Shown here piece after piece: positions 19,821 to 51,084 of a stretch of 64,000 nt of DNA (the first letter of the stretch is position 1; every line of letters begins with the position of its first letter). The translations under genes and the position numbers were made by a program. Source of the DNA: an uncultured Bifidobacterium sp. Lineage in GTDB: Bacteria > Verrucomicrobiota > Verrucomicrobiia > Limisphaerales > JADLHS01. The stretch spans positions 19,230-83,229 of the forward strand of contig CAZKMR010000001.1 of the NCBI GenBank assembly GCA_964553795.1, read 5' to 3'. Below the pieces are notes generated by a model. It did not search any database and was not told where the DNA came from. It saw only the letters and a list, made by a program, of their open reading frames with translations.

Positions 19821-20615
19821 ATGAATCCTGTTGCTCTGATCACCGGCGCGTCGCGTGGCATCGGTCGTGGTATCGCGCTGGAATTGGCCAAGCTCGGCTA
19901 CGATCTCGTGATCAATTACGCCGGCAACGCTGAAGCCGCGCAAAAGACGGCAGGGGATTGTGTCACAGTTGCAAGCGAAGCAGGAAAAACCATTCGTGCC
20001 GAGATCTGTCAGGCGGATATTTCGGAGAGCGCCGACCGGCAGAAACTGATTTCATTCACGCGCGAGAAGTTCAATCGTCTTGATCTGCTGGTAAACAATG
20101 CCGGCGTCGCACCGAACGTGCGCGCAGATATCCTGGAAGCGGGCGAGGAAAGCTTCGACCGCCTCATTGCCATCAACGTCAAAGGCCCGTATTTCCTCAC
20201 GCAACTCGCCGCGAAGTGGATGGTTGAAGAAACGCGGAGTGCGGAGTGCGGAGTGCGGAAACCAAAAATTGTGACAGTGAGTTCTATTTCCGCTTACACC
20301 GCTTCAACAAATCGCGGCGATTACTGTGTAAGCAAAGCGGCGCTCTCGATGTTGACGCCGTTGTTTGCGGCGCGGCTTGCGGAGTACGGCATCAATGTTT
20401 ACGAAATTCGTCCGGGAGTTATCGCCACAGACATGACCGGCGCGGTGAAGGAGAAGTATGACAAACTCATCGCCGAAGGAATGACGCCGATTCAACGCTG
20501 GGGCACGCCCGAAGACATCGGTCGCGCCGTGGCAGCGATTGCGAGCGACGCGTTTCCGTTTAGTACGGGTGAAGTCATCAACGTGGACGGCGGATTTCAT
20601 TTAAAAAGATTGTAG
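19821..20615 (+). CDS. Short-chain dehydrogenase/reductase (SDR)
   Basis: [12 protein letters not shown] cofactor motif, NNAG, and catalytic S...YCVSK. The start is ATG 19821. The TAG stop lies inside the GTAG of a repeat arm. Confidence 0.85.
20234..20259 (+). repeat. Tandem heptamer GCGGAGT x3 (plus a partial copy) inside the SDR coding sequence
   Basis: Read directly: gcggagt gcggagt gcggagt gcgga, translated as RSAECGVR in a loop just before the IVTVSS strand. Confidence 0.7.
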
Positions 20616-20695
20616 GAGACGACGTAAGGAGTCTCTAACTCGACCGAATCGCGCAGAAAACTGATTGATTTGAGACTCGTCACCTCGTCTCCTAC
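20612..20695. repeat. REPIN-like inverted doublet (GTAG-GAGAC-loop-GTCTC arms)
   Basis: The left arm is GTAGGAGACGACGTAAGGAGTCTC (20612-20635). The right arm is GAGACTCGTCACCTCGTCTCCTAC (20672-20695). The arms are inverted copies with 3 mismatches. Confidence 0.65.
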
Positions 20696-20703
20696 CAAAA
20701 AAC

Positions 20704-22218
20704 ATGGCCACAAAAATCGACACCAAACTCACGCCCCAAAAACTCCTGCCGCAAATCGAACGCGTGTTCGAGTTGTCCGGGCAAAAAATCCTGAGCATCG
20801 AAAAATCCTGGAAACCGGCGCAGGGCACGCCGGTGTTCACAGTGAAGGGTAAATACACGTCGCGCGGCTGGACGGAGTGGACGCAGGGTTTTCAATACGG
20901 TTCGGCTTTGCTGCAGTTCGATGCGATGGGCGACGAGCGGTTTCTCGAAATCGGCAAGCGCGGCACGGTGAAATACATGGCATCGCACGTGTCGCACATC
21001 GGCGTGCATGATCATGGATTCAACAATGTTTCGACGTACGGCAATTTGCTGCGCTTGATGCGCGAGGGGAAGATTCCGCAGAACGACGAGGAACAGAATT
21101 TCTACGAAATCGCGCTCAAGGTCAGCGGCGCGGTGCAGGCGTCGCGCTGGACGAAACTCGCGGATGGCACGGGGTTCATTCACAGCTTCAACGGGCCGCA
21201 CTCGCTGTTCGTGGATACGATTCGCTCGTGTCGTGCGCTGGCGGTGGCGCATCAACTCGGCCACGTGCTGATGGGCGAGCAGGACGCGAAGATTTCGTTG
21301 CTGCAACGAGTCGTCGAACACGCCCTGAACACGGCGCGCTACAACGTTTACTATGGCGAAGGGCGCGACGCTTACGATGTGCGCGGTCGCACGGCGCATG
21401 AAGCGGTGTTCAATACGGCGAGTGGGGTGTTTCGGTGCCCGAACTCGCAGCAGGGTTATTCGCCGTTCAGCACCTGGACGCGCGGGTTGGCGTGGGCGAT
21501 TTGTGGTTTTGCGGAGCAATTAGAGTTCATCCGCTTCATTCCTTGGCAAGAGCTTGAATTAGCCTCGTCGAAAAATCGGTGGCTACGAGACTATCGCTCG
21601 TTAAGCGATAAGCAAAAACTTCAACTCACACCTAAATTCGAATCTACTATTCGTAGATTGGCTACTGAGCCCGCAGCTAAAGCTTTGAAGGCGTTCCAAA
21701 CTGCCGCAATTTCTGCAGCAGACTTCTACCTCGAAAATTCCTGTGCCGATGGCGTGCCGATGTGGGACACGGGCGCGCCGAATCTGCATCGCCTGCCCGT
21801 GAATTATCTCAAGAAAGCATCCGATCCGTACAACAAGTTTGAACCGGTGGACGGGTCGGCGGCGGCGATTGCGGCGCAGGGCTTGATCCGGTTGGGCAAT
21901 TATTTAGGAAGCAATTCGAGGACGAGGACGAGAACGAAGGACGAGGACGATGGAAAGCGCTACAAACAGGCCGGGCTTACGATTGCGCGCACGTTGTTCA
22001 GCGAGCCCTGTCTTTCCACTGATCCGAAACATCAAGGTCTGTTGCTGCACTCGGTTTATCATCGGCCGAACGGCTGGGATTACATCGCGCCGGGGCAAAG
22101 CGTGCCAAATGGCGAAAGCTCGATGTGGGGCGATTATCATTTGCGTGAACTGGCTCTCCTCATTCTCCGCGAAGCGCGTGGTGAGCATTATCTGACGTTC
22201 TTTGATTCGACGAAATGA
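20704..22218 (+). CDS. GH88/GH105-like unsaturated uronyl hydrolase, carrying two apparent insertions
   Basis: WTEWTQGFQYG, HDHGFNN, WTRGLAWAICGF and a C-terminal MWGDYHLRELAL resemble unsaturated glucuronyl/rhamnogalacturonyl hydrolases. The family assignment is from memory of motifs only. Confidence 0.65.
   Translation: MATKIDTKLTPQKLLPQIERVFELSGQKILSIEKSWKPAQGTPVFTVKGKYTSRGWTEWTQGFQYGSALLQFDAMGDERFLEIGKRGTVKYMASHVSHIGVHDHGFNNVSTYGNLLRLMREGKIPQNDEEQNFYEIALKVSGAVQASRWTKLADGTGFIHSFNGPHSLFVDTIRSCRALAVAHQLGHVLMGEQDAKISLLQRVVEHALNTARYNVYYGEGRDAYDVRGRTAHEAVFNTASGVFRCPNSQQGYSPFSTWTRGLAWAICGFAEQLEFIRFIPWQELELASSKNRWLRDYRSLSDKQKLQLTPKFESTIRRLATEPAAKALKAFQTAAISAADFYLENSCADGVPMWDTGAPNLHRLPVNYLKKASDPYNKFEPVDGSAAAIAAQGLIRLGNYLGSNSRTRTRTKDEDDGKRYKQAGLTIARTLFSEPCLSTDPKHQGLLLHSVYHRPNGWDYIAPGQSVPNGESSMWGDYHLRELALLILREARGEHYLTFFDSTK
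21918..21950 (+). repeat. GAGGAC-type hexamer low-complexity run inside the hydrolase ORF
   Basis: gaggacgaggacgagaacgaaggacgaggacga is translated as RTRTRTKDEDD. Confidence 0.5.
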
Positions 22219-22296: not shown

Positions 22297-22370
22297 CGGA
22301 GCGTGGCTCTATGAGCCGCAGCACGTCTCTTTGCAAATCGGGCCGCTGCGGGTCACAGACCCGCGCTCCG
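22297..22370. repeat. Nested-hairpin inverted repeat, GGAGCG-frame family
   Basis: CGGAGCGTGG-CTC-TAT-GAG-CCGCAGC ... GCTGCGG-GTC-ACA-GAC-CCGCGCTCCG. The frame matches the elements at 50040-50148 and 52459-52568. Confidence 0.65.
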
Positions 22371-23183: not shown

Positions 23184-23204
23184 TTGAAAAACAACAAGCA
23201 GCCC

Positions 23205-24275
23205 ATGAACTCAACAAAGACTTCATCCGCCGGAAGCATCAACCGCCGCAATTTTCTAGGCGCGACCACCACACTGGTTGCCGGTGCGCTGGCCGCTCCG
23301 AGTCTTGCGGCGGATCGCGACTGGAGCGGCCAACGACCGGTGCGTTATCCCGATCCCGACATCATTTCGCTCGATCCGCGCTTCAACAAATACAAGCTGG
23401 GCAACACGCCGATCCAACGACTGCATACGGGCATGTTGTGGGCGGAAGGTCCGGCGTGGAATGGCGTCGGTCGTTATCTGATGTGGAGCGATATTCCCAA
23501 CAACGTGCAATTGCGCCGGCTGGACGAAGATGGTCACGTGAGCACGTTTCGCAATCCGGCGGGAAACAGCAACGGCAACACGTTCGATTTCGAGGGACGA
23601 CAAATCAGTTGCGAGCACGGGAATCGTCGCGTGGTGCGCTATGAACCCAACGGCGGCATCACCGTGTTGGCGGAAAAGTGGAACGGCAAACCACTCAACG
23701 CGCCGAACGATGTGGTGGTGCATCCGGATGGCGGGATCTGGTTCACCGATCCCGGCTACGGCAGCATGATGAATTACGAAGGCAACAAAGGCGCGTTGGA
23801 AATCAAAGAAGCTGTTTATCGCATTGACCCCAAGACTGCGAAAATGGAATTGGTCACGGATGAATTGAGCAAGCCGAACGGACTCTGTTTTTCGCCGGAC
23901 TACCAAAAGCTCTACATCGCGGATACGGGTGCGGAGGCGCCGAAGCCGATTCAGGTTTTTGATGTGGTGGACGGCGTGAAGCTCAGCAAGGGTCGCCGCT
24001 TTTGCGCGATGGATTACAACGGCAAGAACGGCGGTGCGGACGGAATTCGCGCGGACGTTGATGGCAACATCTGGGCGAGCGCGGGCTGGGCGGGCGAAGG
24101 TTACGATGGCGTGCATGTGTTTGCGCCGGACGGCAAACGCATTGGTGTGATTCTGTTGCCGGAAATTTGCTCGAACGTGTGCTTCGGTGGCGCGAAGCGG
24201 AATCGCCTGTTCATGACGGCGAGCCAGTCGCTCTACGCGGTGTATGTCGAGACGCAAGGAGCGCATATTTGCTGA
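23205..24275 (+). CDS. SMP-30/gluconolactonase/LRE-family lactonase with a Tat signal
   Basis: Twin-arginine motif RRNFLGATTTLVAGALAAPSLAA, plus beta-propeller lactonase motifs AEGPAW, NGNTFD, PNDVVVHPDG, PNGLCFSPD and DGIRADVDGN. Confidence 0.85.
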   Translation: MNSTKTSSAGSINRRNFLGATTTLVAGALAAPSLAADRDWSGQRPVRYPDPDIISLDPRFNKYKLGNTPIQRLHTGMLWAEGPAWNGVGRYLMWSDIPNNVQLRRLDEDGHVSTFRNPAGNSNGNTFDFEGRQISCEHGNRRVVRYEPNGGITVLAEKWNGKPLNAPNDVVVHPDGGIWFTDPGYGSMMNYEGNKGALEIKEAVYRIDPKTAKMELVTDELSKPNGLCFSPDYQKLYIADTGAEAPKPIQVFDVVDGVKLSKGRRFCAMDYNGKNGGADGIRADVDGNIWASAGWAGEGYDGVHVFAPDGKRIGVILLPEICSNVCFGGAKRNRLFMTASQSLYAVYVETQGAHIC

Positions 24276-24278
24276 ATC

Positions 24279-24302
24279 GAGACTCGTCACCTCGTCTCCT
24301 AC
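24279..24302. repeat. Solo REP-like arm identical to the right arm at 20672-20695
   Basis: GAGACTCGTCACCTCGTCTCCTAC is an exact 24-nt match. A decayed partner arm may overlap the last codons of the lactonase gene. Confidence 0.55.
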
Positions 24303-24318
24303 AAATGGAAATCAATTT

Positions 24319-29264: not shown

Positions 29265-32234
29265 ATGAAGTTTCATGTGGGTGTAATTTTAGCGCTGAAC
29301 GGACTTTGGTTCGATGGCGTGAACGCGGCGCCGCCGGAACTGACTCGAGCCGACCTGCCGCGGGTGTTGCCGGTCGAGACGTCGAATGTCTTTCAAACGT
29401 TTCAATTGAAACCGGGATTCAACCTGCAATTGGCCGCCGCCGAGCCGCTCGTTGTTGATCCCATCGAAATGTGTTTCGATGAAAACGGGAGAATGTTCGT
29501 GGTCGAGATGCGGGATTATTCCGAGCGCCGCGAGGAACAACCGCATTTGGGAAGAATCCGCTTGCTGACCGATCCGGACGGCGATGGCGTTTTTGATAAG
29601 GCGACGGTTTTTGCGGAAGATTTGCCGTGGCCAACCGGCGTGTGTTGTTACGCTGGCGGCATCTTCGTCGCCGCGACCCCGGACATCATTTATTTCAAAG
29701 ACACCGACGGCGATGGTCGGGCGGACGTGCGGCAGGTGGTCTTCACCGGGTTTGGGGCTGGCCGGGAGGATAAGCTCAATGTGCAAGCACTGGTGAACAG
29801 TTTGCGCTGGGGAATGGACAACCGCATTCACGGGCAAACCGCTGGCAACGGGGCCGTGCTCAAGCGACCGGGTGCGCCGGATGCGACAGCCCTCATGCTG
29901 CGCGGGCGTGATTTCAGTTTCGATCCACGCCGACTGGATTTACGCGCGGAGAATGGCGGCGGCCAATACGGCATGAGCTTCGATAACCGGGGCCGGAAGT
30001 TTGTGTGCAGTAATTCGCATCACATCCAAACGTTCCGGTACGAATCGCGTTATGCAGAACGCAATCCATTCTATGACCTGCTGCGGGCCTTGGTGGACAT
30101 TGCGGTGGACGGACCGGCGGCGGAAGTCTATCGCACGAGCCCGGAAGAAGCCTGGCGCGTGATTCGCACCCAATGGCGCGTGAGCGGCGTGGTGTCAGGA
30201 TTGATCGAGGGCGGGGGACGTTCATCGGGGTATTTCACATCGGCGACGGGCATCACCATTTACCGCGGCGACGCGTTCCCCGAGGAATTTCAGGGTGACG
30301 CGTTCATTGCAGACGTGGGAAGCAACCTCATTCATCGCAAGAAAGTTCGTCGCGACGGGGTAGGCGTCCTCGCTGAACGACCCGGTGACGAACAAAAAAT
30401 TGAGTTTCTCACGTCCACGGATTTGTGGTTTCGACCGACGATGCTCGCCAACGCTCCGGATGGTTGCCTCTATTTTTGCGACATGTATCGTGAAGTGATC
30501 GAGCATCCCTGGTCCTTGCCTGAGAATATCAAGAAGTTACTCGATCTGAACGCCGGGAATGACCGTGGTCGGATTTACCGAATTGCCCCCGCTGGTTTTA
30601 GCGCGCGCCGGCCACCGCAATTGGGCCGCGCCACCATTCAACAACTGGTTGCCACGCTTGAACACAAGAATGGCTGGCATCGGGACACGGCCGCGCGTTT
30701 GTTGTTTGAGCGCGGGGATTTAACCGCTGTTCCGCTACTGCAAAAAATGCTGCGGGACTCCACTTCGGCTCTGAGTCGGCTGCATGCGCTCCACGTTTTG
30801 GATGGGCTGCAGGCACTGACGGAGGCCGATGTGTTGGCCGCCTTGAACGATTCCGAGGCGTCGGTTCGAGAACACGCGATTGGCCTGGCTGAAAAACTGA
30901 TCGCCGCCGGCAATCTCAAACTGTGGAAGCGGATTTGTCAGTTAAGCGATGATCCCGACATCAACGTGCGTTATCAACTGGCTTTCACGCTGGGCGAGTT
31001 CGATTACCCGGGACGAATCCAAAGTCTGGTCGCTATTGCCCGTCGTGATCTGGAGGACAAGTGGATGCGCGCAGCGATTTATTCGTCCCTCGCCAAAGGC
31101 GCAGGCGAAATGTTTGCCGCGTTAGCGGGTGACGCGGAAGTCCGCACGACAATGGCCGGACAGGAGTTGCTTCAGCAGTTGATCGTGTTCGTCGGGGCAA
31201 ACAATCGTCCTGATGAGATCGCTTTGGTCATCCAGTTGATCGATCAAGTGGATGATCCCGCAACAATGTTTGGTCTGACCCGGGCCTTAGGGGACGGTAT
31301 GCGGCGGGCTCAGAAATCGTTGGATCCCACCGACGACAATTTGAAACGCGTCTTGGTGCGCGCCCGAATGGAATCGGTTAACCCAACTGCCGCTGAATCT
31401 ATTCGTCTTGCAGCCATCGAACTGCTCGCGGTCACGAGCTATCAAGAATGTGGCGACCTGCTGCTGGCGTTGCTGGATTCGCAACATCCGCAAACTGTGC
31501 AGCTCGCCGCGCTGACGGCGCTGGATCAATTTGGCGCGGCGCCCATCGGTGCCGAACTGACACGCCGTTGGTCCGCGTTGACGCCGCGAATCAGAAGCGC
31601 GGCGTTGGCGCTGTTGTTGGCGCGACCGGACCGCGCGAAAGCGTTGTTGGCGGCTATCGAGAGCGACGCGATTCGGGCCAGCGTGCTTGACTCAACACAG
31701 ACCAAGCTTTTGCTCACGTATCGCCATGCCGCAGTGCGCGAGTTGGCGCAGAAAATTCTCGCCCGGCAAACCAATGGCTCACGGCAGAAGGTCATTGCTG
31801 ACTATTCGCCCGCATTAAGCTTGCGCGGCGACGCCGCGGCCGGGAAGAAGATTTACGTCGAGCGTTGTGCGTTTTGTCATCAATCCAACGGCGAGGGCTA
31901 CGCCTTGGGACCGGATTTTGCGACCGTCAAGAACGCTGGCAAGGAGCACCTGTTAACTAGCATCATTGATCCCAATGCCGAGGTGCGCCCGGAATTTGTC
32001 GGTTACGTCATCGAAACGAAGGATGAGCAGAGTTTGCACGGATTGGTCATCAGCGAAAGCGCGGCGAGCATCACGCTGCGGCAACCGTACGGCAAGCAGA
32101 GCGTAATTCCGCGTTCCAACATCATGGCAATGCAAAGCCAGGGTTTATCGGTGATGCCGGAAGAATTGGAGGCTGGTCTCACTCCGCAGGCGATGGCGGA
32201 TTTGCTTGAATACATTGCGAATCCAGCGCCGTAA
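29265..32234 (+). CDS. PVC-type heme-binding protein: membrane-bound-dehydrogenase-like beta-propeller, HEAT repeats and C-terminal cytochrome c
   Basis: Signal peptide, FxLxLAAAEPLVVDPIEMCFDENGRMFVVEMRDY, a HEAT-like middle section, and a C-terminal CAFCHQSNGEG heme c motif. Confidence 0.8.
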   Translation: MKFHVGVILALNGLWFDGVNAAPPELTRADLPRVLPVETSNVFQTFQLKPGFNLQLAAAEPLVVDPIEMCFDENGRMFVVEMRDYSERREEQPHLGRIRLLTDPDGDGVFDKATVFAEDLPWPTGVCCYAGGIFVAATPDIIYFKDTDGDGRADVRQVVFTGFGAGREDKLNVQALVNSLRWGMDNRIHGQTAGNGAVLKRPGAPDATALMLRGRDFSFDPRRLDLRAENGGGQYGMSFDNRGRKFVCSNSHHIQTFRYESRYAERNPFYDLLRALVDIAVDGPAAEVYRTSPEEAWRVIRTQWRVSGVVSGLIEGGGRSSGYFTSATGITIYRGDAFPEEFQGDAFIADVGSNLIHRKKVRRDGVGVLAERPGDEQKIEFLTSTDLWFRPTMLANAPDGCLYFCDMYREVIEHPWSLPENIKKLLDLNAGNDRGRIYRIAPAGFSARRPPQLGRATIQQLVATLEHKNGWHRDTAARLLFERGDLTAVPLLQKMLRDSTSALSRLHALHVLDGLQALTEADVLAALNDSEASVREHAIGLAEKLIAAGNLKLWKRICQLSDDPDINVRYQLAFTLGEFDYPGRIQSLVAIARRDLEDKWMRAAIYSSLAKGAGEMFAALAGDAEVRTTMAGQELLQQLIVFVGANNRPDEIALVIQLIDQVDDPATMFGLTRALGDGMRRAQKSLDPTDDNLKRVLVRARMESVNPTAAESIRLAAIELLAVTSYQECGDLLLALLDSQHPQTVQLAALTALDQFGAAPIGAELTRRWSALTPRIRSAALALLLARPDRAKALLAAIESDAIRASVLDSTQTKLLLTYRHAAVRELAQKILARQTNGSRQKVIADYSPALSLRGDAAAGKKIYVERCAFCHQSNGEGYALGPDFATVKNAGKEHLLTSIIDPNAEVRPEFVGYVIETKDEQSLHGLVISESAASITLRQPYGKQSVIPRSNIMAMQSQGLSVMPEELEAGLTPQAMADLLEYIANPAP

Positions 32235-32290
32235 CCGCGCATTCTGAATTTCCTCGTTACGCTTCCCGCAAGCTCGTCTATGTTTCTCGC

Positions 32291-35008
32291 GTGCAGTCGC
32301 TCGAAAACCAACTCGCCGAATTGCCGGCGCTCAATCAGGTCACCGTGCCCGACCTGTGGCAGCAGCAGGCGGTGATGGCGTTGCGCGAAGGCAAAGACGT
32401 GGTCGTGCAAGCGCCGACCGGCTCGGGCAAGACGCTGATTTTCGAGTTGTGGTCCAATCAGGGCAAGCCGCGCGGTCAGGCGATTTACACGGTGCCGACG
32501 CGCGCGTTGGCCAATGACAAACTCGCCGAATGGCGCGCGCGCGGTTGGGATGTTGGCATCGCGACGGGCGATCTCGCCGAAAACCTCGGCGCTCCGGTGA
32601 TCGTGGCAACGTTGGAGACGCAGAAGAATCGGTTGATCGCAGGTGAAGGGCCGACGCTGCTCGTGGTGGATGAATACCAGATGATCAGCGATCCGGATCG
32701 CGGATTGAACTACGAACTCGCGCTCGCGCTCGCGCCGTCGCACACGCAACTTCTGCTGTTGAGCGGCAGTGTTTCCAATCCGCATCACGTGGTGCAATGG
32801 CTGAATCGCCTCGGGCGCAAGGCCGTGTTGATACGTCACGAACATCGCCCGGTGCCGCTAGATGAAGTGTGGGCGAACAATTTGAACTTTCACGTGCCTT
32901 CGGAGATTCGCGGTTATTGGGCGCGCTTGGTCGCGAAAGCGTTGGCCGAAGACCTCGGGCCGATTTTGATCTTTGCGCCGCGCCGACAAGGCGCAGAAAG
33001 CATGGCCGCTGATCTCGCGCGCAATTTGCCCACGCCCAATCCGCTCCAACTTTCCACCGAGCAAAAACAGATTGTTGGCGAACATCTCGCGAAGATGCTC
33101 AAGAGTCGCATCGCGTATCATCACAGCGGCTTGAGCTACGCAGCGCGGGCGGGCGTGATTGAACCGCTGGCGAAGGCGGGACAATTGCGCGTGGTGGTGG
33201 CGACGATGGGTTTGGCGGCGGGCATCAATTTTTCGCTGCGCAGTGTGGCGTTGGCGGGCGAATCGTATCGGCGCGATGCCGTGGAACAGCCGCTGCGCGC
33301 GGATGAGATTTTGCAGATGTTCGGTCGCGCGGGGCGACGCGGATTGGACGAAACGGGCTATGTGTTGATCACGGCGAATGAGATTCGTTTGCTGGATGCG
33401 CGGGCGTGTCATCTGTCGCGGAGCGGCGCGGTGGACTGGAGCGCGTTGTTGGGTTTGATGCAAACGGCGGCGGAGCAGGGGAAGACGCCGTTCGCGGAAG
33501 CGGTGCGCGCGCAGGAACGCTTGTTCACGACGAAGCCGATTTTGCTGGGCGTGGAAGAATCCATGAAACATCCGGTTGTGCCGTGCGGATTGCACACGGA
33601 TGCGGAGCGCGCGCGGCACGTGCGGAAACGGCAGCGCGAGATGTTGAACAGTCGCGGTGAATGGCAGGCGTATCCGATGACGACGGAAAAGCCGTTGCGC
33701 GAAATTGTGGTGGGAGACAAGGAAACGCACAGGGGAACATCCAACATCCAAGGCTCGGCGGATGGCCATTCTTTGGGAAATAGAGCTAACTCGCAGCCGG
33801 TCGGAAATGGGCAGACAGAATATTTGCAGGACGACCACTCACCCCAAAACCGTAGCCGCCGACGTGAGGAGGCGGAGCGCTCTGCAAACGAAATGCTTCC
33901 GCCTCCTCATGTCGGCGACTACCACGAGCCGGTTTCTGCAGACAGCTCGTATGAAGCGAAGCCCACTTTTCGCTCCGTGCTCTCCGAACAAGCGGCGTTG
34001 GAAAAAGTTGGGACGGGGATGATCGTGGTTCTGGAGGAACGCGAGGACGGAACAAAAGTTTACGGTCGCGCTTCAACCGTGGCGGACGTGCTCAGCGGCG
34101 ATCGTGTGATCATCGCCAAGTGGGTGCGGCGACTGACGAATTGGAACGGTCGGCAGGCGGAGTTGAGTGTGTGGCACGAAAAAATTGCGCCGTTGCTCGA
34201 ACACAGACTCGCCGGTCAGCATACGCCGGTGGTGAAGTTCGTGAAGCAGGCGCAACGCATTCTCGTTTACGTGAGTCTCGCAGACCTGACGATGCGCGTG
34301 CCGGTGGATAATTACGGTGTGGCGATGTGGAAACCGGTCGAGCGGGAAGTGTTGCCCTACGATTGCGCGCAGTGTTCGCTGGTCGAAGTGTGCAAAACGC
34401 TGCCGACGGCGACGGGAACGGCGTTGACGTGGCGGCGTTTGAATCTCGTGGATGCGGAAGGCAAGCCGACGCTGCGCGGGCGCGTGGTGAGTTTCTTTCA
34501 ACAGGGCGACGGCTTGGCAATCGCTGCGGCGCTGGAGGATGAGCGGTATCCGTTGGACGAATTGATTTACGACATCGCGAATTTAGACGGCGGTTTTCGC
34601 TTTTGCGGCGATGAGAATCGTTATGCGGGCCGATTGGCGAATGCGTGTCACGAGAAGTTTCAATTGCTCAGCATACCCGGCTATCTCGAAAACGGGTTGC
34701 CGCCGAAATATGGTTACGGCGCGGAAGCGGTCGTGCAGAGCGTGCATAAAAATCCCGCGAGCAAACATCATTGGGTGACGGATTTGCTCGGGGCGGGGGA
34801 CATTGATCGGGCGATTATCGAGTGGCGTAGTTTACTGCGGCAAATTTCGCATGCGCCGGAACTGGAGTGGCCGCGCTGGAGCGCGTTTCAGGCGTTGGCA
34901 AAGACGACGTTGAACGAGACGGAATCGCCGACGCTAACGGAGTTACCGCGGCTGGAGTACCACCAAACGCGGCGCGTGGATCATCGGTTGATTTTGCGGC
35001 GGCATTGA
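32291..35008 (+). CDS. Superfamily-2 DEAD/DEAH-box (Ski2/HelY-like) helicase
   Basis: Motif I QAPTGSGKT, motif II VVDEYQ, motif VI QMFGRAGRRG, and a large C-terminal domain. It contains a low-complexity, repeat-bearing insert around 33720-33960. Confidence 0.85.
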   Translation: MQSLENQLAELPALNQVTVPDLWQQQAVMALREGKDVVVQAPTGSGKTLIFELWSNQGKPRGQAIYTVPTRALANDKLAEWRARGWDVGIATGDLAENLGAPVIVATLETQKNRLIAGEGPTLLVVDEYQMISDPDRGLNYELALALAPSHTQLLLLSGSVSNPHHVVQWLNRLGRKAVLIRHEHRPVPLDEVWANNLNFHVPSEIRGYWARLVAKALAEDLGPILIFAPRRQGAESMAADLARNLPTPNPLQLSTEQKQIVGEHLAKMLKSRIAYHHSGLSYAARAGVIEPLAKAGQLRVVVATMGLAAGINFSLRSVALAGESYRRDAVEQPLRADEILQMFGRAGRRGLDETGYVLITANEIRLLDARACHLSRSGAVDWSALLGLMQTAAEQGKTPFAEAVRAQERLFTTKPILLGVEESMKHPVVPCGLHTDAERARHVRKRQREMLNSRGEWQAYPMTTEKPLREIVVGDKETHRGTSNIQGSADGHSLGNRANSQPVGNGQTEYLQDDHSPQNRSRRREEAERSANEMLPPPHVGDYHEPVSADSSYEAKPTFRSVLSEQAALEKVGTGMIVVLEEREDGTKVYGRASTVADVLSGDRVIIAKWVRRLTNWNGRQAELSVWHEKIAPLLEHRLAGQHTPVVKFVKQAQRILVYVSLADLTMRVPVDNYGVAMWKPVEREVLPYDCAQCSLVEVCKTLPTATGTALTWRRLNLVDAEGKPTLRGRVVSFFQQGDGLAIAAALEDERYPLDELIYDIANLDGGFRFCGDENRYAGRLANACHEKFQLLSIPGYLENGLPPKYGYGAEAVVQSVHKNPASKHHWVTDLLGAGDIDRAIIEWRSLLRQISHAPELEWPRWSAFQALAKTTLNETESPTLTELPRLEYHQTRRVDHRLILRRH
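33852..33922. repeat. REPIN-like inverted doublet inside the helicase ORF
   Basis: GTAGCCGCCGACGTGAGGAGGCGGA (33852-33876), a 21-nt spacer, then TCCGCCTCCTCATGTCGGCGACTAC (33898-33922). The arms are complementary at 23/25 positions. Confidence 0.7.
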
Positions 35009-44507: not shown

Positions 44508-45932
44508 ATGTCCATATTAAAAGTCATCCTGGTGGTGTTGGAAGCGCTGCTCGCGCTGAACCTGCTCATTTTCGTTCACGAACTCGGGCACTTCCTTGCC
44601 GCGCGCTGGCGCGGTTTGAAAGTCGAACGCTTCGCCATCTGGTTCGGCAAGCCGATCTGGAGCAAGAAGATCAACGGTGTGGAATATGCGCTCGGCTGGA
44701 TTCCCGCCGGCGGTTACGTGTCGCTCCCCCAAATGGCCACGATGGAAGCCATCGAAGGCAAAACCGAGGAAAAGGCTGAGCAACTACCGAACATTTCGCC
44801 GCTGGACAAGATCATCGTGGCGTTTGCCGGACCGCTGTTCAGTTTTCTGCTGGCAATTATGTTCGCGGTGCTCGTCTGGCAAGTCGGCAAACCGGTGAGC
44901 GTGGTGGAAGAAGCACCCGTGCTGGGGTGGGTCGTGCCCGAAGGGCCGGCGTGGAAGGCGGGGTTGCGCCCCGGCGATCAAATCCTCGAGATCGACGACA
45001 AACCGGTAACCACCTTTGGCCCGCCGTCGCGGGATAGCATCACCTGGCGCGTCATTACCAGCGAGGGGGAACAACTCAAGATCAAGTATGAGCGCGACGG
45101 GCAAACCAATGTCGTTTTCGCCACTCCCGAAAAAGCAAAGACGAAATGGTATGAACGCCGCGCCTTGCGGATGATCAAAGTGGGCCCGGTCGAAACGGCG
45201 ATGATCTACAACGTCGCTTCGAACAGTCCCGCGGCGCTGGCCGGAATTCGTCCCGGGGACATTATCACCAAATTGAATGGCGAAGACATTTTGAGTTACG
45301 CGGAGGTGTTTCATGCGCAAGCCGGCCAGACCAATCCCAGCGCAGGCCCCGTGGAATTCACAGTGAAACGAGGCGCGGAGGAATTCACGCGCACGCTCGC
45401 CGCCGTCAAGCCGGTTTCCCCCACCAACATGCCGCCCTCATTTGGGATTCTGAGTTTTCAAGCGAATACGAACGTCGCCGTGAAATACCGGCATCCCAGC
45501 CCGTGGGAGCAGATCGAAGACAGCGCCGGTCAGATTTTCGCGACCATCGGCGCGGTATTTTCACCGAAAACTGACATCGGCGTGCAACAACTCGGCGGCG
45601 CGGTGATGATCATCCGCGTTTACAAAAACCTGTTTGAGAACGAAGACGGCTGGCGCTTGGTGCTCTGGTTCAGCGTCGTCCTCAACGTGAATCTCGCGAT
45701 GCTGAATATGTTGCCGCTGCCCGTGCTGGATGGCGGACACATCACGCTCGCATTGGTCGAAGCGGCGCGGCGCCGCCCCGTCAGTCCCAGATTGCTCAAT
45801 TATATTCAAAGCGGCTTCGCGATTCTCTTAATCACCTTCATGTTGTGGATTGCATTCTTCGATACGGGCGATTGGATTCGCAGCGCCCGGTCGGATCGCG
45901 AGCACAAAATTGTTTTTGCCCCGCAACAGTAA
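44508..45932 (+). CDS. rseP: RIP site-2 zinc metalloprotease RseP (M50)
   Basis: HELGHFLAA zinc motif, PDZ domains (GLRPGDQILEID; GIRPGDIITKLNG) and a C-terminal LNMLPLPVLDGG. Confidence 0.9.
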   Translation: MSILKVILVVLEALLALNLLIFVHELGHFLAARWRGLKVERFAIWFGKPIWSKKINGVEYALGWIPAGGYVSLPQMATMEAIEGKTEEKAEQLPNISPLDKIIVAFAGPLFSFLLAIMFAVLVWQVGKPVSVVEEAPVLGWVVPEGPAWKAGLRPGDQILEIDDKPVTTFGPPSRDSITWRVITSEGEQLKIKYERDGQTNVVFATPEKAKTKWYERRALRMIKVGPVETAMIYNVASNSPAALAGIRPGDIITKLNGEDILSYAEVFHAQAGQTNPSAGPVEFTVKRGAEEFTRTLAAVKPVSPTNMPPSFGILSFQANTNVAVKYRHPSPWEQIEDSAGQIFATIGAVFSPKTDIGVQQLGGAVMIIRVYKNLFENEDGWRLVLWFSVVLNVNLAMLNMLPLPVLDGGHITLALVEAARRRPVSPRLLNYIQSGFAILLITFMLWIAFFDTGDWIRSARSDREHKIVFAPQQ

Positions 45933-45942
45933 GCATTGGCTT

Positions 45943-47799
45943 ATGCGTTATTGCGATTCTCCCTACGTCTTCAAACGTCGCCAGACGCGCGAGGTGGTCA
46001 TTGGCGATCCGGCGAACGGGGGCGTGATCATTGGTGGCGATCATCCAGTGGTCGCACAATCCATGATCACCTGCGACACGATGGACACGGCGGCGAGCGT
46101 GCAGCAAACGCTTGATCTCGTCGCGGTCGGTTGCCAGATCGTGCGCATCACCGCGCCAACGGTGAAGGACGCGGCGAACTTGCAGAACATCGTGGCGGAA
46201 TTGCGCCAGCGCGGTTGCAACGTGCCGATTGTCGCGGACATTCACTTCAAACCCGAAGCCGCGATGGAAGCGGTGAAATGGGTGGAAGTCATTCGCGTCA
46301 ATCCCGGTAACTATGCCGACTCCAAGAAATTCGCGATCAAGGAATACACCGACGAGCAATACGCGGCGGAGCTGAAGCGGATTGAAGAAAAGTTCACGCC
46401 GCTCGTGCTCGAGTGCCTGAAGCTCAAGCGCGCGATGCGCATCGGCACGAACCACGGTTCACTCAGCGATCGCATCATGAATCGCTACGGCGACACGCCG
46501 TTGGGAATGGTCGAAAGCGCGCTGGAATTCGCCCGCATCTGCCGCAAGCACGACTTTCACAACTTCAAGTTCTCGATGAAGTCGAGCAATCCGAAGGTGA
46601 TGATTGAGTGTTATCGCCTATTAGTGGCGCGGCTGGAACAGGAAGGACCGGATTGGAATTATCCGATTCACCTCGGCGTCACTGAAGCCGGCGAAGGCGA
46701 GGATGGACGCATCAAGAGCGCCATCGGGATCGGCTCGCTATTGTGCGACGGCTTGGGCGATACGATTCGCGTTTCGCTGACGGAAGATTCGCCGCGCGAA
46801 ATTGAAGTCTGCCGCGATTTGCTCGCGCAGATTCCGTTGCTCGCCAATACAAAGACCAGCATTGCGGAAACGAGTTTTCCCTTTGATCCCTTTCACTTCG
46901 AAAAGCGACAGACGCCCGAGATTGAACTGAACGAACAAGTCAAATGCGGCGGCGAACAACTTATCCGCGTCGTCGTCACCAGAGCGACCTGGGACAAAGT
47001 CGCGCCGAAGATTCGTCCCAAGGACGATGTAAAACCCGAAGCGGTTTACGAGGATTTGAACGTTGCGGAGCTTGATCCGACTCAAGACTTCGAAATCAAC
47101 TGCGACACGCAACTGGTCACCGTGAAGGACGGCGTGAATTTGCCGGCCATCACGGCGTTTCGCTTGTTGGTCGCTAAATTGAAGCGGCTGGGTCGCAAGA
47201 ATCCCATTTTGCTGAAAGATTGTCTGGGATTCGGTGGTAGCCGCCGAGGTAACGAGGCGGACACTTCGATTGGCAAGAATCCGCCTCCTCACGTCGGCGG
47301 CTACGAAGTTCTTGAGCCGAAGATCGCTTTGCTTCGCGCCTCGGTAGTCATCGGATCATTGCTGGCGGATGGCATCGGCGATGCGATTCTCGTTCGGGGC
47401 GAATCGGGTGCGGGCCAAAGTCTGCGGCTCGCGTATAATATTTTGCAGGCGGCGGGTTGCCGCAGCTTCAAGACGGATTACGTCGCTTGCCCGAGTTGCG
47501 GTCGCACATTGTTCAATCTCCAGACCGTCACCGCGCGCATCAAAGCGCGCACGGAACATCTCAAGGGCGTGAAAATCGCCATCATGGGTTGCATCGTAAA
47601 TGGTCCGGGCGAAATGGCGGATGCGGATTTCGGTTACGTTGGCGGCGCGCCGGGCAAAATCAATCTCTACGTCGGCAAAACTCCGATCAAGTTCAACATC
47701 CCCGAAGCCGAAGCGGTGGAGCGGCTCGTGGATTTGATTCGCGAACACGGCAAGTGGGTTGAGCCGGAAGTCGAATTGGCGAAAGTAGAACAGTCGTAA
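45943..47799 (+). CDS. ispG: 4-hydroxy-3-methylbut-2-enyl diphosphate synthase, long form
   Basis: VRITAPT, IVADIHF, IRVNPGN, a C-terminal ACPSCGRT ... GCIVNGPGE Fe-S motif, and a large internal domain typical of long-type IspG. The start is ATG 45943. Confidence 0.9.
   Translation: MRYCDSPYVFKRRQTREVVIGDPANGGVIIGGDHPVVAQSMITCDTMDTAASVQQTLDLVAVGCQIVRITAPTVKDAANLQNIVAELRQRGCNVPIVADIHFKPEAAMEAVKWVEVIRVNPGNYADSKKFAIKEYTDEQYAAELKRIEEKFTPLVLECLKLKRAMRIGTNHGSLSDRIMNRYGDTPLGMVESALEFARICRKHDFHNFKFSMKSSNPKVMIECYRLLVARLEQEGPDWNYPIHLGVTEAGEGEDGRIKSAIGIGSLLCDGLGDTIRVSLTEDSPREIEVCRDLLAQIPLLANTKTSIAETSFPFDPFHFEKRQTPEIELNEQVKCGGEQLIRVVVTRATWDKVAPKIRPKDDVKPEAVYEDLNVAELDPTQDFEINCDTQLVTVKDGVNLPAITAFRLLVAKLKRLGRKNPILLKDCLGFGGSRRGNEADTSIGKNPPPHVGGYEVLEPKIALLRASVVIGSLLADGIGDAILVRGESGAGQSLRLAYNILQAAGCRSFKTDYVACPSCGRTLFNLQTVTARIKARTEHLKGVKIAIMGCIVNGPGEMADADFGYVGGAPGKINLYVGKTPIKFNIPEAEAVERLVDLIREHGKWVEPEVELAKVEQS
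47237..47304. repeat. REPIN-like inverted doublet inside the ispG ORF
   Basis: GTAGCCGCCGAGGTAACGAGGCGGA (47237-47261), an 18-nt spacer, then TCCGCCTCCTCACGTCGGCGGCTAC (47280-47304). The arms are complementary at 22/25 positions. Confidence 0.7.
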
Positions 47800-49534: not shown

Positions 49535-50992
49535 ATGCCTCTTCCCGATTTGATCGAAATCATCCCGCTCGACGAGCCCGTGCGCGCGGAGATCACCGTG
49601 CCTGGTTCGAAGAGCATCACGAATCGCGCGCTCATTCTCGCGGCGCTGGCGGATGGTGAAGTGACGTTGACGGGCGCGCTGTGGAGTGAGGATACGCAGG
49701 TGATGACCGAGGCGTTGCGAACGCTCGGATTCGACGTGCGCGTGGAGAATGATCCGGCGGAGTTTTGTAATCGGACGATTACGGTCAAAGGGCAGGGCGG
49801 ACGGATTCCCAAAGCAGGCACGGCGGAAAAGCCGCTGGAGCTGTTTGTGGGCAATGCGGGTACAGCAGCGCGGTTTCTGGCGGCGCTGGTTTGTTTGGGC
49901 AACGGCGTGTATCGGTTGAGCGGCGTGCCGCGGATGCACGAACGTCCGCAGGCGGAATTGTTCAAGGCGTTGCGCGAACTTGGCTATCGCGTGGAGACAC
50001 CGAACGAAAAGTTGCCGGCAGTGATTTTTGGCGAAGCGCCGGAGCGCGGCTCTGTGAGCCGCAGCGATTCGGCCACGCCGGAGGCTTCCATTGATTCTGG
50101 ACGTGAAAAAGCTGACGAGAGCGCTGCGGGTCGCAGACCCGCGCTCCGGAAGCGCAGTTGCACCGTCAGCATTTCGGAAAGCTCGCAATTTGCCTCGGCG
50201 CTGTTGCTCGCGGCGAAGCATGGTGGATGGGAAGTGAAGATTGCCGGTGATGATGACGAGGAAGCGCCGTATGTAGTAATGACCCAACGATTGATCGAAT
50301 CGTTTCCCAAACGTGGAGGTCGTTTTCAGATTGAGCCGGATGCATCCAGCGGCAGTTATTTTTGGGGCGCGGGCTGGTTGGTTACAGTGAAATGGTGGCT
50401 GGGTGCTCCGGTTGAGGAACTAGGTCCGGAGGGTTCGCCGATTTGGGTAAAGGCGTGGCCGAAATCTGGCTGGCAAATTGATGCGGCATTTCCCGATTTC
50501 CAGCCTTGGCCGGAAAGTATTTCGCGTGAAGGTCAGTTGGCTGACAGCATCATGACTGCGGTGGTGTTGGTCGCAGACCGGGAAAGTGCAGTTGATTGTT
50601 ATCTTGAGCCTCGTGCGGAGATGAAATTCACCGAACTTGGCCGGTTGCGCGTGCAGGAATGTGAGCGCGTCGTTGCTTTGCGCACGGAGTTGACCAAGTG
50701 CGGAGCAAAAGTGGTTGAAGAAGGCGACACGTTGACGGTTTACCCCTCCGATCTGCACGGCGCGGAGATCGAGACCTACAACGATCATCGCATGGCCATG
50801 TGTTTTGCGATTCTGGGATTGAAAGTGCCGGGGATAAAAATCAAGAATCCCGCGTGCGTGAAGAAGACGTTCCCCAATTTTTTCCAGAAACTCGCCGCGC
50901 CGCCACCCAATGGATTGGGCGTGGAGATTTGGGAAATTAAGGACGCCCAACGGACACGGAAATTGGAAGGTGAAGATTTGTTTGCGGACTGA
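49535..50992 (+). CDS. aroA: 3-phosphoshikimate 1-carboxyvinyltransferase (EPSP synthase) with an in-frame repeat-derived insert
   Basis: PGSKSITNRALILAALA, LFVGNAGTAARFL, MHERP, SSQFASALLL, DHRMAMCFAILGL and VKKTFPNFF. The start is ATG 49535. Confidence 0.9.
   Translation: MPLPDLIEIIPLDEPVRAEITVPGSKSITNRALILAALADGEVTLTGALWSEDTQVMTEALRTLGFDVRVENDPAEFCNRTITVKGQGGRIPKAGTAEKPLELFVGNAGTAARFLAALVCLGNGVYRLSGVPRMHERPQAELFKALRELGYRVETPNEKLPAVIFGEAPERGSVSRSDSATPEASIDSGREKADESAAGRRPALRKRSCTVSISESSQFASALLLAAKHGGWEVKIAGDDDEEAPYVVMTQRLIESFPKRGGRFQIEPDASSGSYFWGAGWLVTVKWWLGAPVEELGPEGSPIWVKAWPKSGWQIDAAFPDFQPWPESISREGQLADSIMTAVVLVADRESAVDCYLEPRAEMKFTELGRLRVQECERVVALRTELTKCGAKVVEEGDTLTVYPSDLHGAEIETYNDHRMAMCFAILGLKVPGIKIKNPACVKKTFPNFFQKLAAPPPNGLGVEIWEIKDAQRTRKLEGEDLFAD
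50040..50148. repeat. Nested-hairpin inverted repeat (GGAGCG-frame family) inside the aroA ORF
   Basis: CGGAGCGCGG-CTC-TGT-GAG-CCGCAGCG (left) ... CGCTGCGG-GTC-GCA-GAC-CCGCGCTCCG (right). The arms are near-identical to those at 22297-22370. Confidence 0.7.
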
Positions 50993-51005: not shown

Positions 51006-51084
51006 GTTGAAAGTTGAAGGTTGCAAGTTGGCAGAGAAACGTCGCGGGTAAATCACCTGCAACTTGCAACCTTCAACTTGTAAC
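51006..51084. repeat. Long inverted repeat (about 28-bp stem) built of GTTGNAA heptads, between aroA and cmk
   Basis: The left arm is gttgaaagttgaaggttgcaagttggcag (51006-51034). The right arm is ctgcaacttgcaaccttcaacttgtaac (51057-51084). The loop is 22 nt. Confidence 0.65.

Follow-up and report, generated by a model that had tools for sequence, protein, structure and literature searches.

The aroA gene of an uncultured verrucomicrobium, which encodes 5-enolpyruvylshikimate-3-phosphate (EPSP) synthase, is interrupted in frame by a 111-nt palindromic element whose two arms each contain a small hairpin of their own. The gene lies within a 64,000-nucleotide stretch of contig CAZKMR010000001.1 (positions 19,230 to 83,229; GenBank assembly GCA_964553795.1, titled as an uncultured Bifidobacterium sp. 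and placed by GTDB in the Limisphaerales), which we refer to as the window. In all likelihood the element, which we call type A, is a repeat of the REPIN kind (a hairpin-forming doublet of repetitive extragenic palindromes, REPs) that entered a turn of AroA, is translated as part of the protein, has been inherited with its arms under constraint, and occupies a site that serves as a landing pad for many hairpin families.

An initial annotation of this DNA had described a nested-hairpin inverted repeat lying in frame in aroA and had attributed to it a repeat-derived peptide of about 35-40 residues. Both descriptions held. The palindromic unit at 50039-50149 reads CCGGAGCGCGGCTCTGTGAGCCGCAGCG - 55 nt - CGCTGCGGGTCGCAGACCCGCGCTCCGG; its 111 nt are exactly 37 codons, in frame, and contribute AroA residues 169-205, with the sequence PERGSVSRSDSATPEASIDSGREKADESAAGRRPALR (PERGSVSRS...AAGRRPALR). 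Tryptic peptides of this segment include GSVSR and SDSATPEASIDSGR. A repeat finder delimited arms of 28 nt each at 50039-50066 and 50122-50149, 89% complementary and 55 nt apart, and each arm contains a 7-bp mini-hairpin with a 3-nt loop. The gene and the parts of its element, with the evidence for each, are as follows:

49535-50992, + strand: aroA (EPSP synthase, 485 residues plus stop), host of the insertion (Pfam, TIGR01356, structures, synteny)
50039-50149, + strand: long-form type-A hairpin element with a 109-nt core (inverted repeat, fold, absence from empty-site orthologs, predicted local distance difference test [pLDDT] score <50 at residues 170-204)
50041-50065, + strand: left arm, a C-type REP-like unit, GGAGC-GCGGCTC-TGT-GAGCCGC-AGC (exact match to the family motif, stem covariation)
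50046-50062, + strand: left-arm mini-hairpin GCGGCTC-TGT-GAGCCGC, stem 50046-50052 / 50056-50062 (7 bp, 3-nt loop)
50066-50122, + strand: centre, 57 nt, encoding DSATPEASIDSGREKADES (in the family, length fixed and sequence free)
50123-50147, + strand: right arm, a G-type unit in inverted orientation, GCT-GCGGGTC-GCA-GACCCGC-GCTCC (family motif, pairing, covariation)
50126-50142, + strand: right-arm mini-hairpin GCGGGTC-GCA-GACCCGC, stem 50126-50132 / 50136-50142 (7 bp, 3-nt loop)

The + strand of the element folds at -73.6 kcal/mol (z = -6.65). When we scanned the window with the 25-nt arm motif, allowing up to 3 mismatches, we obtained four matches, consisting of both arms of the aroA element and both arms of a second copy at 22298-22369; from 100 dinucleotide-preserving shuffles of the window, none would be expected. 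At gathering thresholds, Rfam gave no match anywhere in the window and offered no family for the element. A CRISPR array, a riboswitch or small RNA gene, and tandem-repeat slippage were dropped as origins of type A, as the structure is an inverted dimer dispersed over genomes and has no Rfam match.

The second copy in the window is a short form of the element:

22297-22370, + strand: short-form type-A copy, 74 nt, intergenic (arm motif, spacing, fold)
22298-22322 / 22345-22369, + strand: arms of the short-form copy, around a 22-nt centre (arm motif)

The arms of the aroA element had been described as near-identical to those of this copy. The arms are indeed common to both, but they are all that the two copies have in common; the sister copy has a centre of 22 nt and not 57 nt, and the two centres are unrelated in sequence. 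The short form folds at -49.1 kcal/mol (z = -6.2). It follows the stop codon of the ORF (open reading frame) at 20704-22218 and precedes a GDSL-lipase gene. If the lipase ORF is extended through 22297-22370, its Pfam GDSL domain begins only at residue 93, so that the true start of the lipase is most likely downstream of the copy.

The host gene has the fold and catalytic motifs of a class I-like EPSP synthase. AroA matched Pfam PF00275 with E = 1.3e-67, the match being broken into two stretches, and scored 249.9 bits against TIGR01356, under the cut-off of 287. In Foldseek searches, its top structural neighbours were EPSP synthases (probability 1.00, template modeling score [TM-score] ~0.65-0.74), and the nearest solved structures are class I enzymes. 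The gene order tyrA-(SUFU)-aroA-cmk-acyltransferase is kept in orthologs. The SUFU-family gene (PF05076; 48798-49526, + strand) in the tyrA/aroA interval is found here and in one compared locus (L205) and is not there in three others (L002, L203, and L204). At least 230 alignment columns are invariant over 39 AroA orthologs, including GSKS, GNAGTA, PRMHERP, SSQF, DHRMAM, and KKTFP. An R and a Q at residues ~370-375 (LGRLRVQECER) are likewise invariant in these 39 orthologs of the clade. They occupy what we take to be the positions of N336 and K340 in the E. coli enzyme, which contact shikimate-3-phosphate, and may represent a compensating swap of positive charge.

The initial annotation had stated that canonical AroA enzymes have only a short loop at this place, and comparison with orthologs and solved structures bore this out. 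For query residues 162-204, solved class I EPSP synthases need eight residues (174-182 in the Vibrio cholerae structure 3nvs), against 42 in the query. Among 58 ortholog loci, the segment from ALRELGY to SSQFAS is 77 residues long in our sequence versus 42 in more distant Verrucomicrobiota orthologs, where its consensus is ...LPALIHGxGPRxGxCxVSIxESSQFAS. A close ortholog (P0004/L001) also has the bare turn. Thus, the extra residues are absent from distant orthologs and solved enzymes and are not conserved among unrelated AroA proteins.

We mapped the insert onto an AlphaFold2 model built with 39 orthologs (predicted TM-score 0.82, mean pLDDT 81). Residues 170-204 were modelled with pLDDT ~27-32 and without secondary structure, between strands at 162-165 and 207-212, and the second of these strands runs into the SSQ motif at residues 216-218. 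As modelled, the insert adds a disordered loop of ~37 residues to a surface beta-turn. The insertion is in a beta-turn ~10 residues upstream of the SSQ motif, which binds shikimate-3-phosphate.

Eight AroA homologs have a centre homologous to that of the window's copy, and we compared five of them (the window, L002, L203, L204, and L205) as DNA. These sequences had been retrieved as whole-protein homologs and typed from their peptides, and because all eight have intact arms, ascertainment bias on the arms is small. Divergence among the five orthologs was distributed as follows:

Arms: pairwise divergence 3.2% (16/496), 4 of 49 columns variable
Four-fold sites within the arms: 1 of 9 columns variable
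Centre: pairwise divergence 25.6%, 31 of 57 columns variable
Four-fold sites in the rest of the gene: pairwise divergence 44%, 102 of 144 columns variable
All sites in the rest of the gene: pairwise divergence 20-26%, 523 of 1272 columns variable

The arms differed from the four-fold sites of the gene in Fisher's test (p = 3e-15), as did four-fold sites within the arms from those outside them (p = 6e-4). The insertion in aroA is old and inherited, and its centre has since drifted. Since the arms are nearly invariant at the nucleotide level, synonymous sites included, the constraint acts on the DNA or RNA element and not on the peptide. Candidate causes are that a cognate enzyme or a factor of the host recognizes the arms, that the hairpin as such is maintained, or that sister copies act as donors in gene conversion. 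The four-fold sites of AroA are ~44% diverged while protein identity is 75-86%, a pattern that indicates strong purifying selection on the enzyme.

Other orthologs have other hairpins at the same turn. Among the 120 closest AroA homologs, the turn was empty in 11 and held a 4-residue insert made of tandem heptamers in 18; the rest fell into distinct peptide groups, which at the DNA level proved to be near-perfect hairpin elements. The families at the AroA loop are as follows:

Type A: the hairpin described above, identified at the DNA level
A2 and D: relatives of type A that share its outer (GGRGCGCGGCT) and inner (AGCCGCAGC) frames but have another mini-hairpin
B: GTAGCMGCCGA..., the same family as the window's elements at 33852 and 47237
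C: a G/C-tract hairpin
E: GTAGGGCGCGTCAC..., a perfect 30-bp palindrome
F and H: GTAGGGACGCG...
G: GTAGTGGCACGG...

Families B, E, F, and G have GTAG...CTAC ends. We place the number of unrelated families at the turn at no less than seven, and give it only as a lower bound because insert types are nearly unclustered on a neighbor-joining tree of the 120 homologs (68 changes by Fitch parsimony, against 76.9 when shuffled; minimum 69). The near absence of clustering may reflect poor resolution of the tree or recombination. As to the tandem heptamers at this loop (GGTGCGA, GCGGAAT, GAATCCA, and AGTCAGA), they give peptides such as VRGEKAEVRS and form no hairpin; they resemble the units of a hairpin at 51006-51084, between the aroA stop codon and cmk, whose arms are built of the heptamers GTTGAAA, GTTGAAG, and GTTGCAA.

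Within aroA, strict inverted repeats (arms ≥16 nt with ≥85% complementarity and a gap up to 100 nt) were confined to the loop: 62 aroA coding sequences (85.7 kb) contained 16, all at the loop and none elsewhere. A sliding-window threshold on minimum free energy was abandoned as too noisy in coding DNA of 57% GC, where it gave 38 other matches at conserved codons. We also checked the reading frame at ortholog loci found with tblastn and retrieved through C-terminal motifs, independently of gene calls. Since all 62 evaluable loci were in frame and stop-free over the loop, the sequences argue for translation of the inserts and against bypassing, in keeping with the repeat-derived peptide described for the window's copy.

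A second region of AroA is also hypervariable. Residues ~283-330 (~50380-50525; alignment columns ~320-520), between GSYFWGAGW and ISRxxQLxDSIMT, are unrelated in sequence among close orthologs and differ in length by up to ~60 residues, and the strict inverted-repeat scan found no inverted-repeat element there. This region differs even among orthologs with a common type-A insert, which hints at mosaic or recombinant aroA genes.

The pattern at aroA is repeated in an unrelated gene of the window, ispG:

47237-47304: REP dimer of another family, with GTAG...CTAC ends (GTAGCCGCCGAGGTAACGAGGCGGA...), in frame in ispG/gcpE (ORF 45850-47799, + strand), encoding GSRRGNEADTSIGKNPPPHVGGYE

This element is placed in an insert domain of ~200 residues. 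At the same site, 19 of 120 IspG orthologs are empty and the others have at least 6-8 unrelated peptides; the three inserts that we examined as DNA were all different hairpin elements. The AroA turn is a landing pad held by many families, and since ispG has the same pattern, occupancy of a single site by multiple families is a property of the elements and genomes and not special to aroA.

Beyond the window, type A belongs to a large family, as expected of the mobile or structured repeat that had been proposed and as predicted if its inverted repeat recurs elsewhere. We took a census by exact scanning with GGAGCGYGGSTCTRYGASCCGCAGC, using one genome per species; the figures are lower bounds. 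No fewer than 119 reference-genome stretches contain the arm motif, nearly all of them metagenome-assembled genomes (MAGs) of Verrucomicrobiota (subdivision 3, Pedosphaera, and Limisphaerales), and it is present on at least nine separate contigs in the MAG DASTXC01 and at least seven in CAIYOY01. Seven records with the motif (L006, L012, L039, L057, L061, L072, and L078) are titled as MAGs of 'uncultured Klebsiella sp.', 'Bifidobacteriaceae', or 'Bifidobacterium sp.'; mislabelling or contamination of these bins is probable. An inverted partner lay 35-100 nt away for 109 of the 134 evaluable arms, while 25 were solo. Spacing between arm starts fell into two classes, ~47 nt (the 74-nt element) and ~82 nt (the 109-nt element), and among 30 paired elements drawn from different genomes, 17 had a spacing of 81-83 nt. 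The centres are unrelated across the family save for a weak GGCGAAGCY beside one arm.

The 7-bp mini-hairpin of each arm is backed by covariation. At positions 10 and 19 of the pattern-matched arms, we counted G/C in 102, C/G in 47, and C/C or G/G in none; the search pattern permitted all four combinations, among which 149/149 arms were complementary. In 50 distinct partner arms, located by position and not by pattern and thus unbiased, pair 8/18 was G-C in 33 and A-T in 9, pair 9/17 was G-C in 26, C-G in 16, and T-A in 2, and pair 10/16 was T-A in 39 and A-T in 2. Most elements pair a C-type with a G-type arm, which leaves two mismatches (C.C/G.G) in the long hairpin and both mini-hairpins perfect.

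Several type-A copies are nested within longer host palindromes. Short-form copies in L017/L070/L071, L023, and L116 lie within a longer conserved palindrome (..TCCTAATTTC [element] GAAATTAGGA..), and a composite 183-nt unit (L104:313-493) has a third, divergent internal arm. These composite forms suggest that the type-A dimer can be part of larger repeat units.

Type A also occurs inside other genes. Of 123 type-A units, 38 (31%, an upper bound on the intragenic share) lie within a spanning open frame of at least 150 codons, and at least 69% are outside any long spanning frame. When we searched 10 long spanning frames with Pfam, domains flanked or contained the element in five, each in frame:

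DAO oxidoreductase (L025)
MutY, with the element inside the NUDIX domain (L082)
SNF2 helicase (L096)
GcvP (L095)
HsdR (L026)

Type-A arms were also present in aroA of four more reference genomes (L013, L021, L033, and L056).

Other GTAG families in the window occur both in genes and between them. A second copy of the family in ispG (33852-33922) lies in frame in the ORF at 32210-35005 (+ strand), which has 932 codons and DEAD and Helicase_C domains; it encodes ...NRSRRREEAERSANEMLPPPHVGDY... and falls ~170 residues past the last Pfam domain. A third family (GTAGGAGACGACGTAAGGAGTCTC...) has a full dimer at 20612-20695, intergenic and just upstream of the start of the ORF at 20704-22218, and a solo unit at 24279-24304, intergenic and at the end of the ORF at 23184-24275.

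As to its class, type A has two inverted units around a short spacer (109/134 arms partnered), its unit is itself a palindrome under selection (7-bp stem, 3-nt loop, covariation), and its copies form a dispersed, multi-copy, and mainly extragenic population. Except for the head tetranucleotide, this is the anatomy of a REP dimer, or REPIN. By analogy, a Y1 transposase of the RAYT (REP-associated tyrosine transposase) type is our leading guess for the mobilising enzyme. The element could instead be a classical MITE (a miniature transposable element), with terminal inverted repeats and an origin by deletion from an insertion sequence (IS) that encodes a DDE transposase, an explanation that we consider improbable. 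Its arms do form terminal inverted repeats of ~27 nt, its size of ~74-109 nt and its lack of a GTAG head speak for a MITE, and no RAYT was found in a motif screen of 1.64 Mb, albeit a weak test. However, 28 complete copies lack the flanking target-site duplication of such elements, 25 arms are solo, and sister families at the same sites have GTAG...CTAC ends. Moreover, each arm is a covarying hairpin, a feature that marks REPs and not the termini of ISs, and no IS with type-A termini (CGGAGCGCGG...CCGCGCTCCG) was noticed in 1.6 Mb, although no search was aimed at one.

Several observations nonetheless weigh against a REPIN-like, mobile origin or limit how far the account can be pressed. Essentially every type-A copy has (C)GGAG as its head and not the GTAG (GT[AG]G) of classical RAYT-associated REPs. 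No transposase was linked to the arms; the ORFs that recur nearby are ordinary paralog families, the clusters consisting of two-component systems, GFO/IDH/MocA oxidoreductases, ABC transporters, and similar genes. A regular-expression search of 1.64 Mb for HUH/Y1 motifs returned no RAYT-like ORF, a weak test since only genome fragments were covered. The 28 complete copies had neither a target-site duplication nor a target motif, save a C...G that extends the palindrome, as the flanks of complete copies often do. Copies within one genome have very divergent centres and give no sign of recent transposition, and the family may be a relic that no longer moves and is retained because it serves the host. 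Both translation of the insert and activity of the enzyme that contains it are read from sequence, and the near-unclustered neighbor-joining tree (68 versus 76.9) does not allow independent events at the AroA loop to be counted.

The hairpin or the long loop might also be kept because it benefits the host, with the repeat families as interchangeable suppliers. Such a benefit could come from mRNA structure midway through aroA, between its two halves (ribosome pausing or transcript stability), from DNA to which a nucleoid or topology protein binds, or from a flexible loop that has a function on the enzyme. Some loop insert is present in about 90% of the 120 closest AroA homologs, the arms are conserved far past neutral expectation, even at synonymous sites, and occupation has persisted through at least 44% four-fold divergence. 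Yet distant orthologs and several close ones (P0004, P0005, P0014, P0015, P0020...) do well on the bare 42-residue segment, 18 homologs have just the 4-residue heptamer insert and no hairpin, and the centre peptide, modelled as disordered, drifts at a rate roughly equal to or above the average of the gene. The unrelated ispG also has the same multi-family pattern, which points to the elements and not to aroA. We regard host benefit as an unlikely explanation. We give far less credence to the idea that the element is never translated, either because ribosomes bypass it, as in T4 gene 60 and the mitochondrial 'byp' elements, or because it is removed from the mRNA. The element does form a GC-rich hairpin of great stability within coding sequence, and mobile GC hairpins in the coding regions of yeast mitochondria are bypassed. 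However, skipped elements need no frame, yet all 62 loci are in frame and open across many families and lengths, as are the intragenic type-A copies in five other gene families. It is just as improbable that this aroA is a decaying pseudogene, whose insert would say nothing about tolerance. The TIGR01356 score is under the curated cut-off, and two positions that presumably correspond to shikimate-3-phosphate contacts in E. coli (N336 and K340) read R and Q. But the ORF is intact, its synteny is conserved, at least 230 columns that include the catalytic motifs are invariant over 39 orthologs, the R and Q are themselves invariant in the clade, and ~44% four-fold divergence against 75-86% protein identity points to strong purifying selection.

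The account that we favour is therefore that of a REPIN-like insertion. A non-autonomous REP dimer, with two inverted 25-27-nt arms that each contain a small hairpin and a spacer of fixed length, would have landed in the codons of a surface beta-turn of AroA. It would have survived because it was a multiple of three, was stop-free in frame, and merely lengthened the turn. Transcribed and translated with aroA, it would form a disordered loop of ~37 residues, probably harmless to the enzyme, since the open frame is conserved over diverged orthologs. Its arms were then held nearly invariant while the centre drifted, and at a few landing pads hairpin families would replace one another over evolutionary time.

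Such replacement could occur element for element at an existing hairpin, by overwriting, or could reflect independent insertions filtered to the sole tolerant site. Overwriting appears to be favoured, because the AroA fold has many surface loops, because a second length-tolerant region of the protein has no hairpin element, and because some copies are nested in pre-existing palindromes. More tentatively, REPIN families may overwrite one another at the AroA and IspG pads while preserving the frame, with their arms actively maintained, through a cognate enzyme, a factor of the host, or directed gene conversion, until synonymous sites are near saturation; we see this as a possibility, with the odds somewhat against it. 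If true, intragenic REPINs would be persistent, selected residents of essential genes and not passively tolerated junk, and hairpin-targeted, element-for-element replacement would be a mode of transposition.

Hairpins that interrupt coding sequences are known in other systems. The Rickettsia palindromic elements (RPEs) are reportedly selfish palindromes that sit in frame in housekeeping genes and are translated into surface loops of proteins that keep their function. RPEs are ~100-150 nt long and encode a peptide that may be partly structured or amphipathic; to our knowledge, an architecture of arms around a free spacer has not been described for them. Like RPEs, the aroA insert is in frame, stop-free, absent from orthologs, and in a surface loop of a conserved protein, although phylum and sequences are unrelated. 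The mitochondrial 'byp' elements and T4 gene 60 also have a GC-rich hairpin that interrupts a coding sequence whose gene survives. There the ribosome skips the insert, which need not be in frame, whereas the inserts at the AroA loop are always in frame and stop-free (62/62 loci).

The closest likeness is to REPINs (Bertels and Rainey, 2011, PMC3116915; Di Nocera et al., 2013, PMC3733652). Like type A, REPINs consist of two inverted, short, imperfect palindromes around a spacer, have arms much more conserved than the spacer, can be heterodimers of two stem variants, fold as two small hairpins or one long one, and are dispersed in many copies that are mostly extragenic. Their GTAG...CTAC ends are present in the sister families that co-reside with type A. 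Type A itself differs in its GGAG head, in place of GTAG or CGTC (the tags in PMC3733652), in its two discrete spacer classes of 22 and 57 nt, in its unusually large in-frame share (up to 38/123, an upper bound), and in lacking a linked RAYT gene in our ORF clustering and the weak 1.64-Mb motif screen. Intragenic GTAG-REPs were reported at the highest number in another verrucomicrobium, Opitutus terrae, where monomers and dimers lie in ORFs, dimers encoding 20-30 residues (PMC3733652), compared with 37 for type A in aroA. These repeats resemble type A in phylum, in their location in ORFs of known proteins, and in the presence of several families per genome, but represent another family in another lineage than our MAGs of subdivision 3 and the Pedosphaera-Limisphaerales. 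The lists in PMC3733652 do not include aroA among the O. terrae host genes, and that study, which also cites the in-frame palindromic repeats of Rickettsia housekeeping genes (Ogata et al., 2000), reports neither occupation of one orthologous site by multiple families nor site-wise conservation of arms. In Pseudomonas chlororaphis, 13 of 20 fully conserved extragenic spaces hold mixed REPIN types, and the authors suggest overwriting as RAYTs are exchanged (REPORTH preprint, 10.1101/2024.10.14.618302). As at the AroA turn, one orthologous position there holds different types in different strains. Those sites are extragenic and involve three REPIN types in one species (<4% divergence), whereas the AroA and IspG sites are coding, keep the frame, and span much deeper divergence in two essential genes, with at least seven unrelated families at the AroA turn. 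In-frame hairpins in coding genes are thus already known as a class, from the Rickettsia RPEs and the O. terrae GTAG-REPs (PMC3733652); within the literature that we searched, the multi-family landing pad and the conservation of arms among orthologs are undescribed for coding sequence.

In a large clade of soil and freshwater bacteria, most of them uncultured, selfish hairpins are translated as parts of essential enzymes. For annotation, such inserts depress the scores of family models, as with TIGR01356 here, and produce spurious 'low-complexity' peptides that recur over unrelated proteins. For protein engineering, they show, through replicates supplied by nature, a turn at which EPSP synthase, the target of glyphosate, tolerates insertions: the AroA turn accepts inserts of 4 to ~40 residues from many sources, ~10 residues from the substrate-binding SSQ motif. 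A landing pad in ORFs, together with arm divergence of 3% (16/496) against 44% at four-fold sites, bears on whether REPINs are parasites, relics, or maintained partners, and because these insertions are orthologous and datable, they make that question testable.

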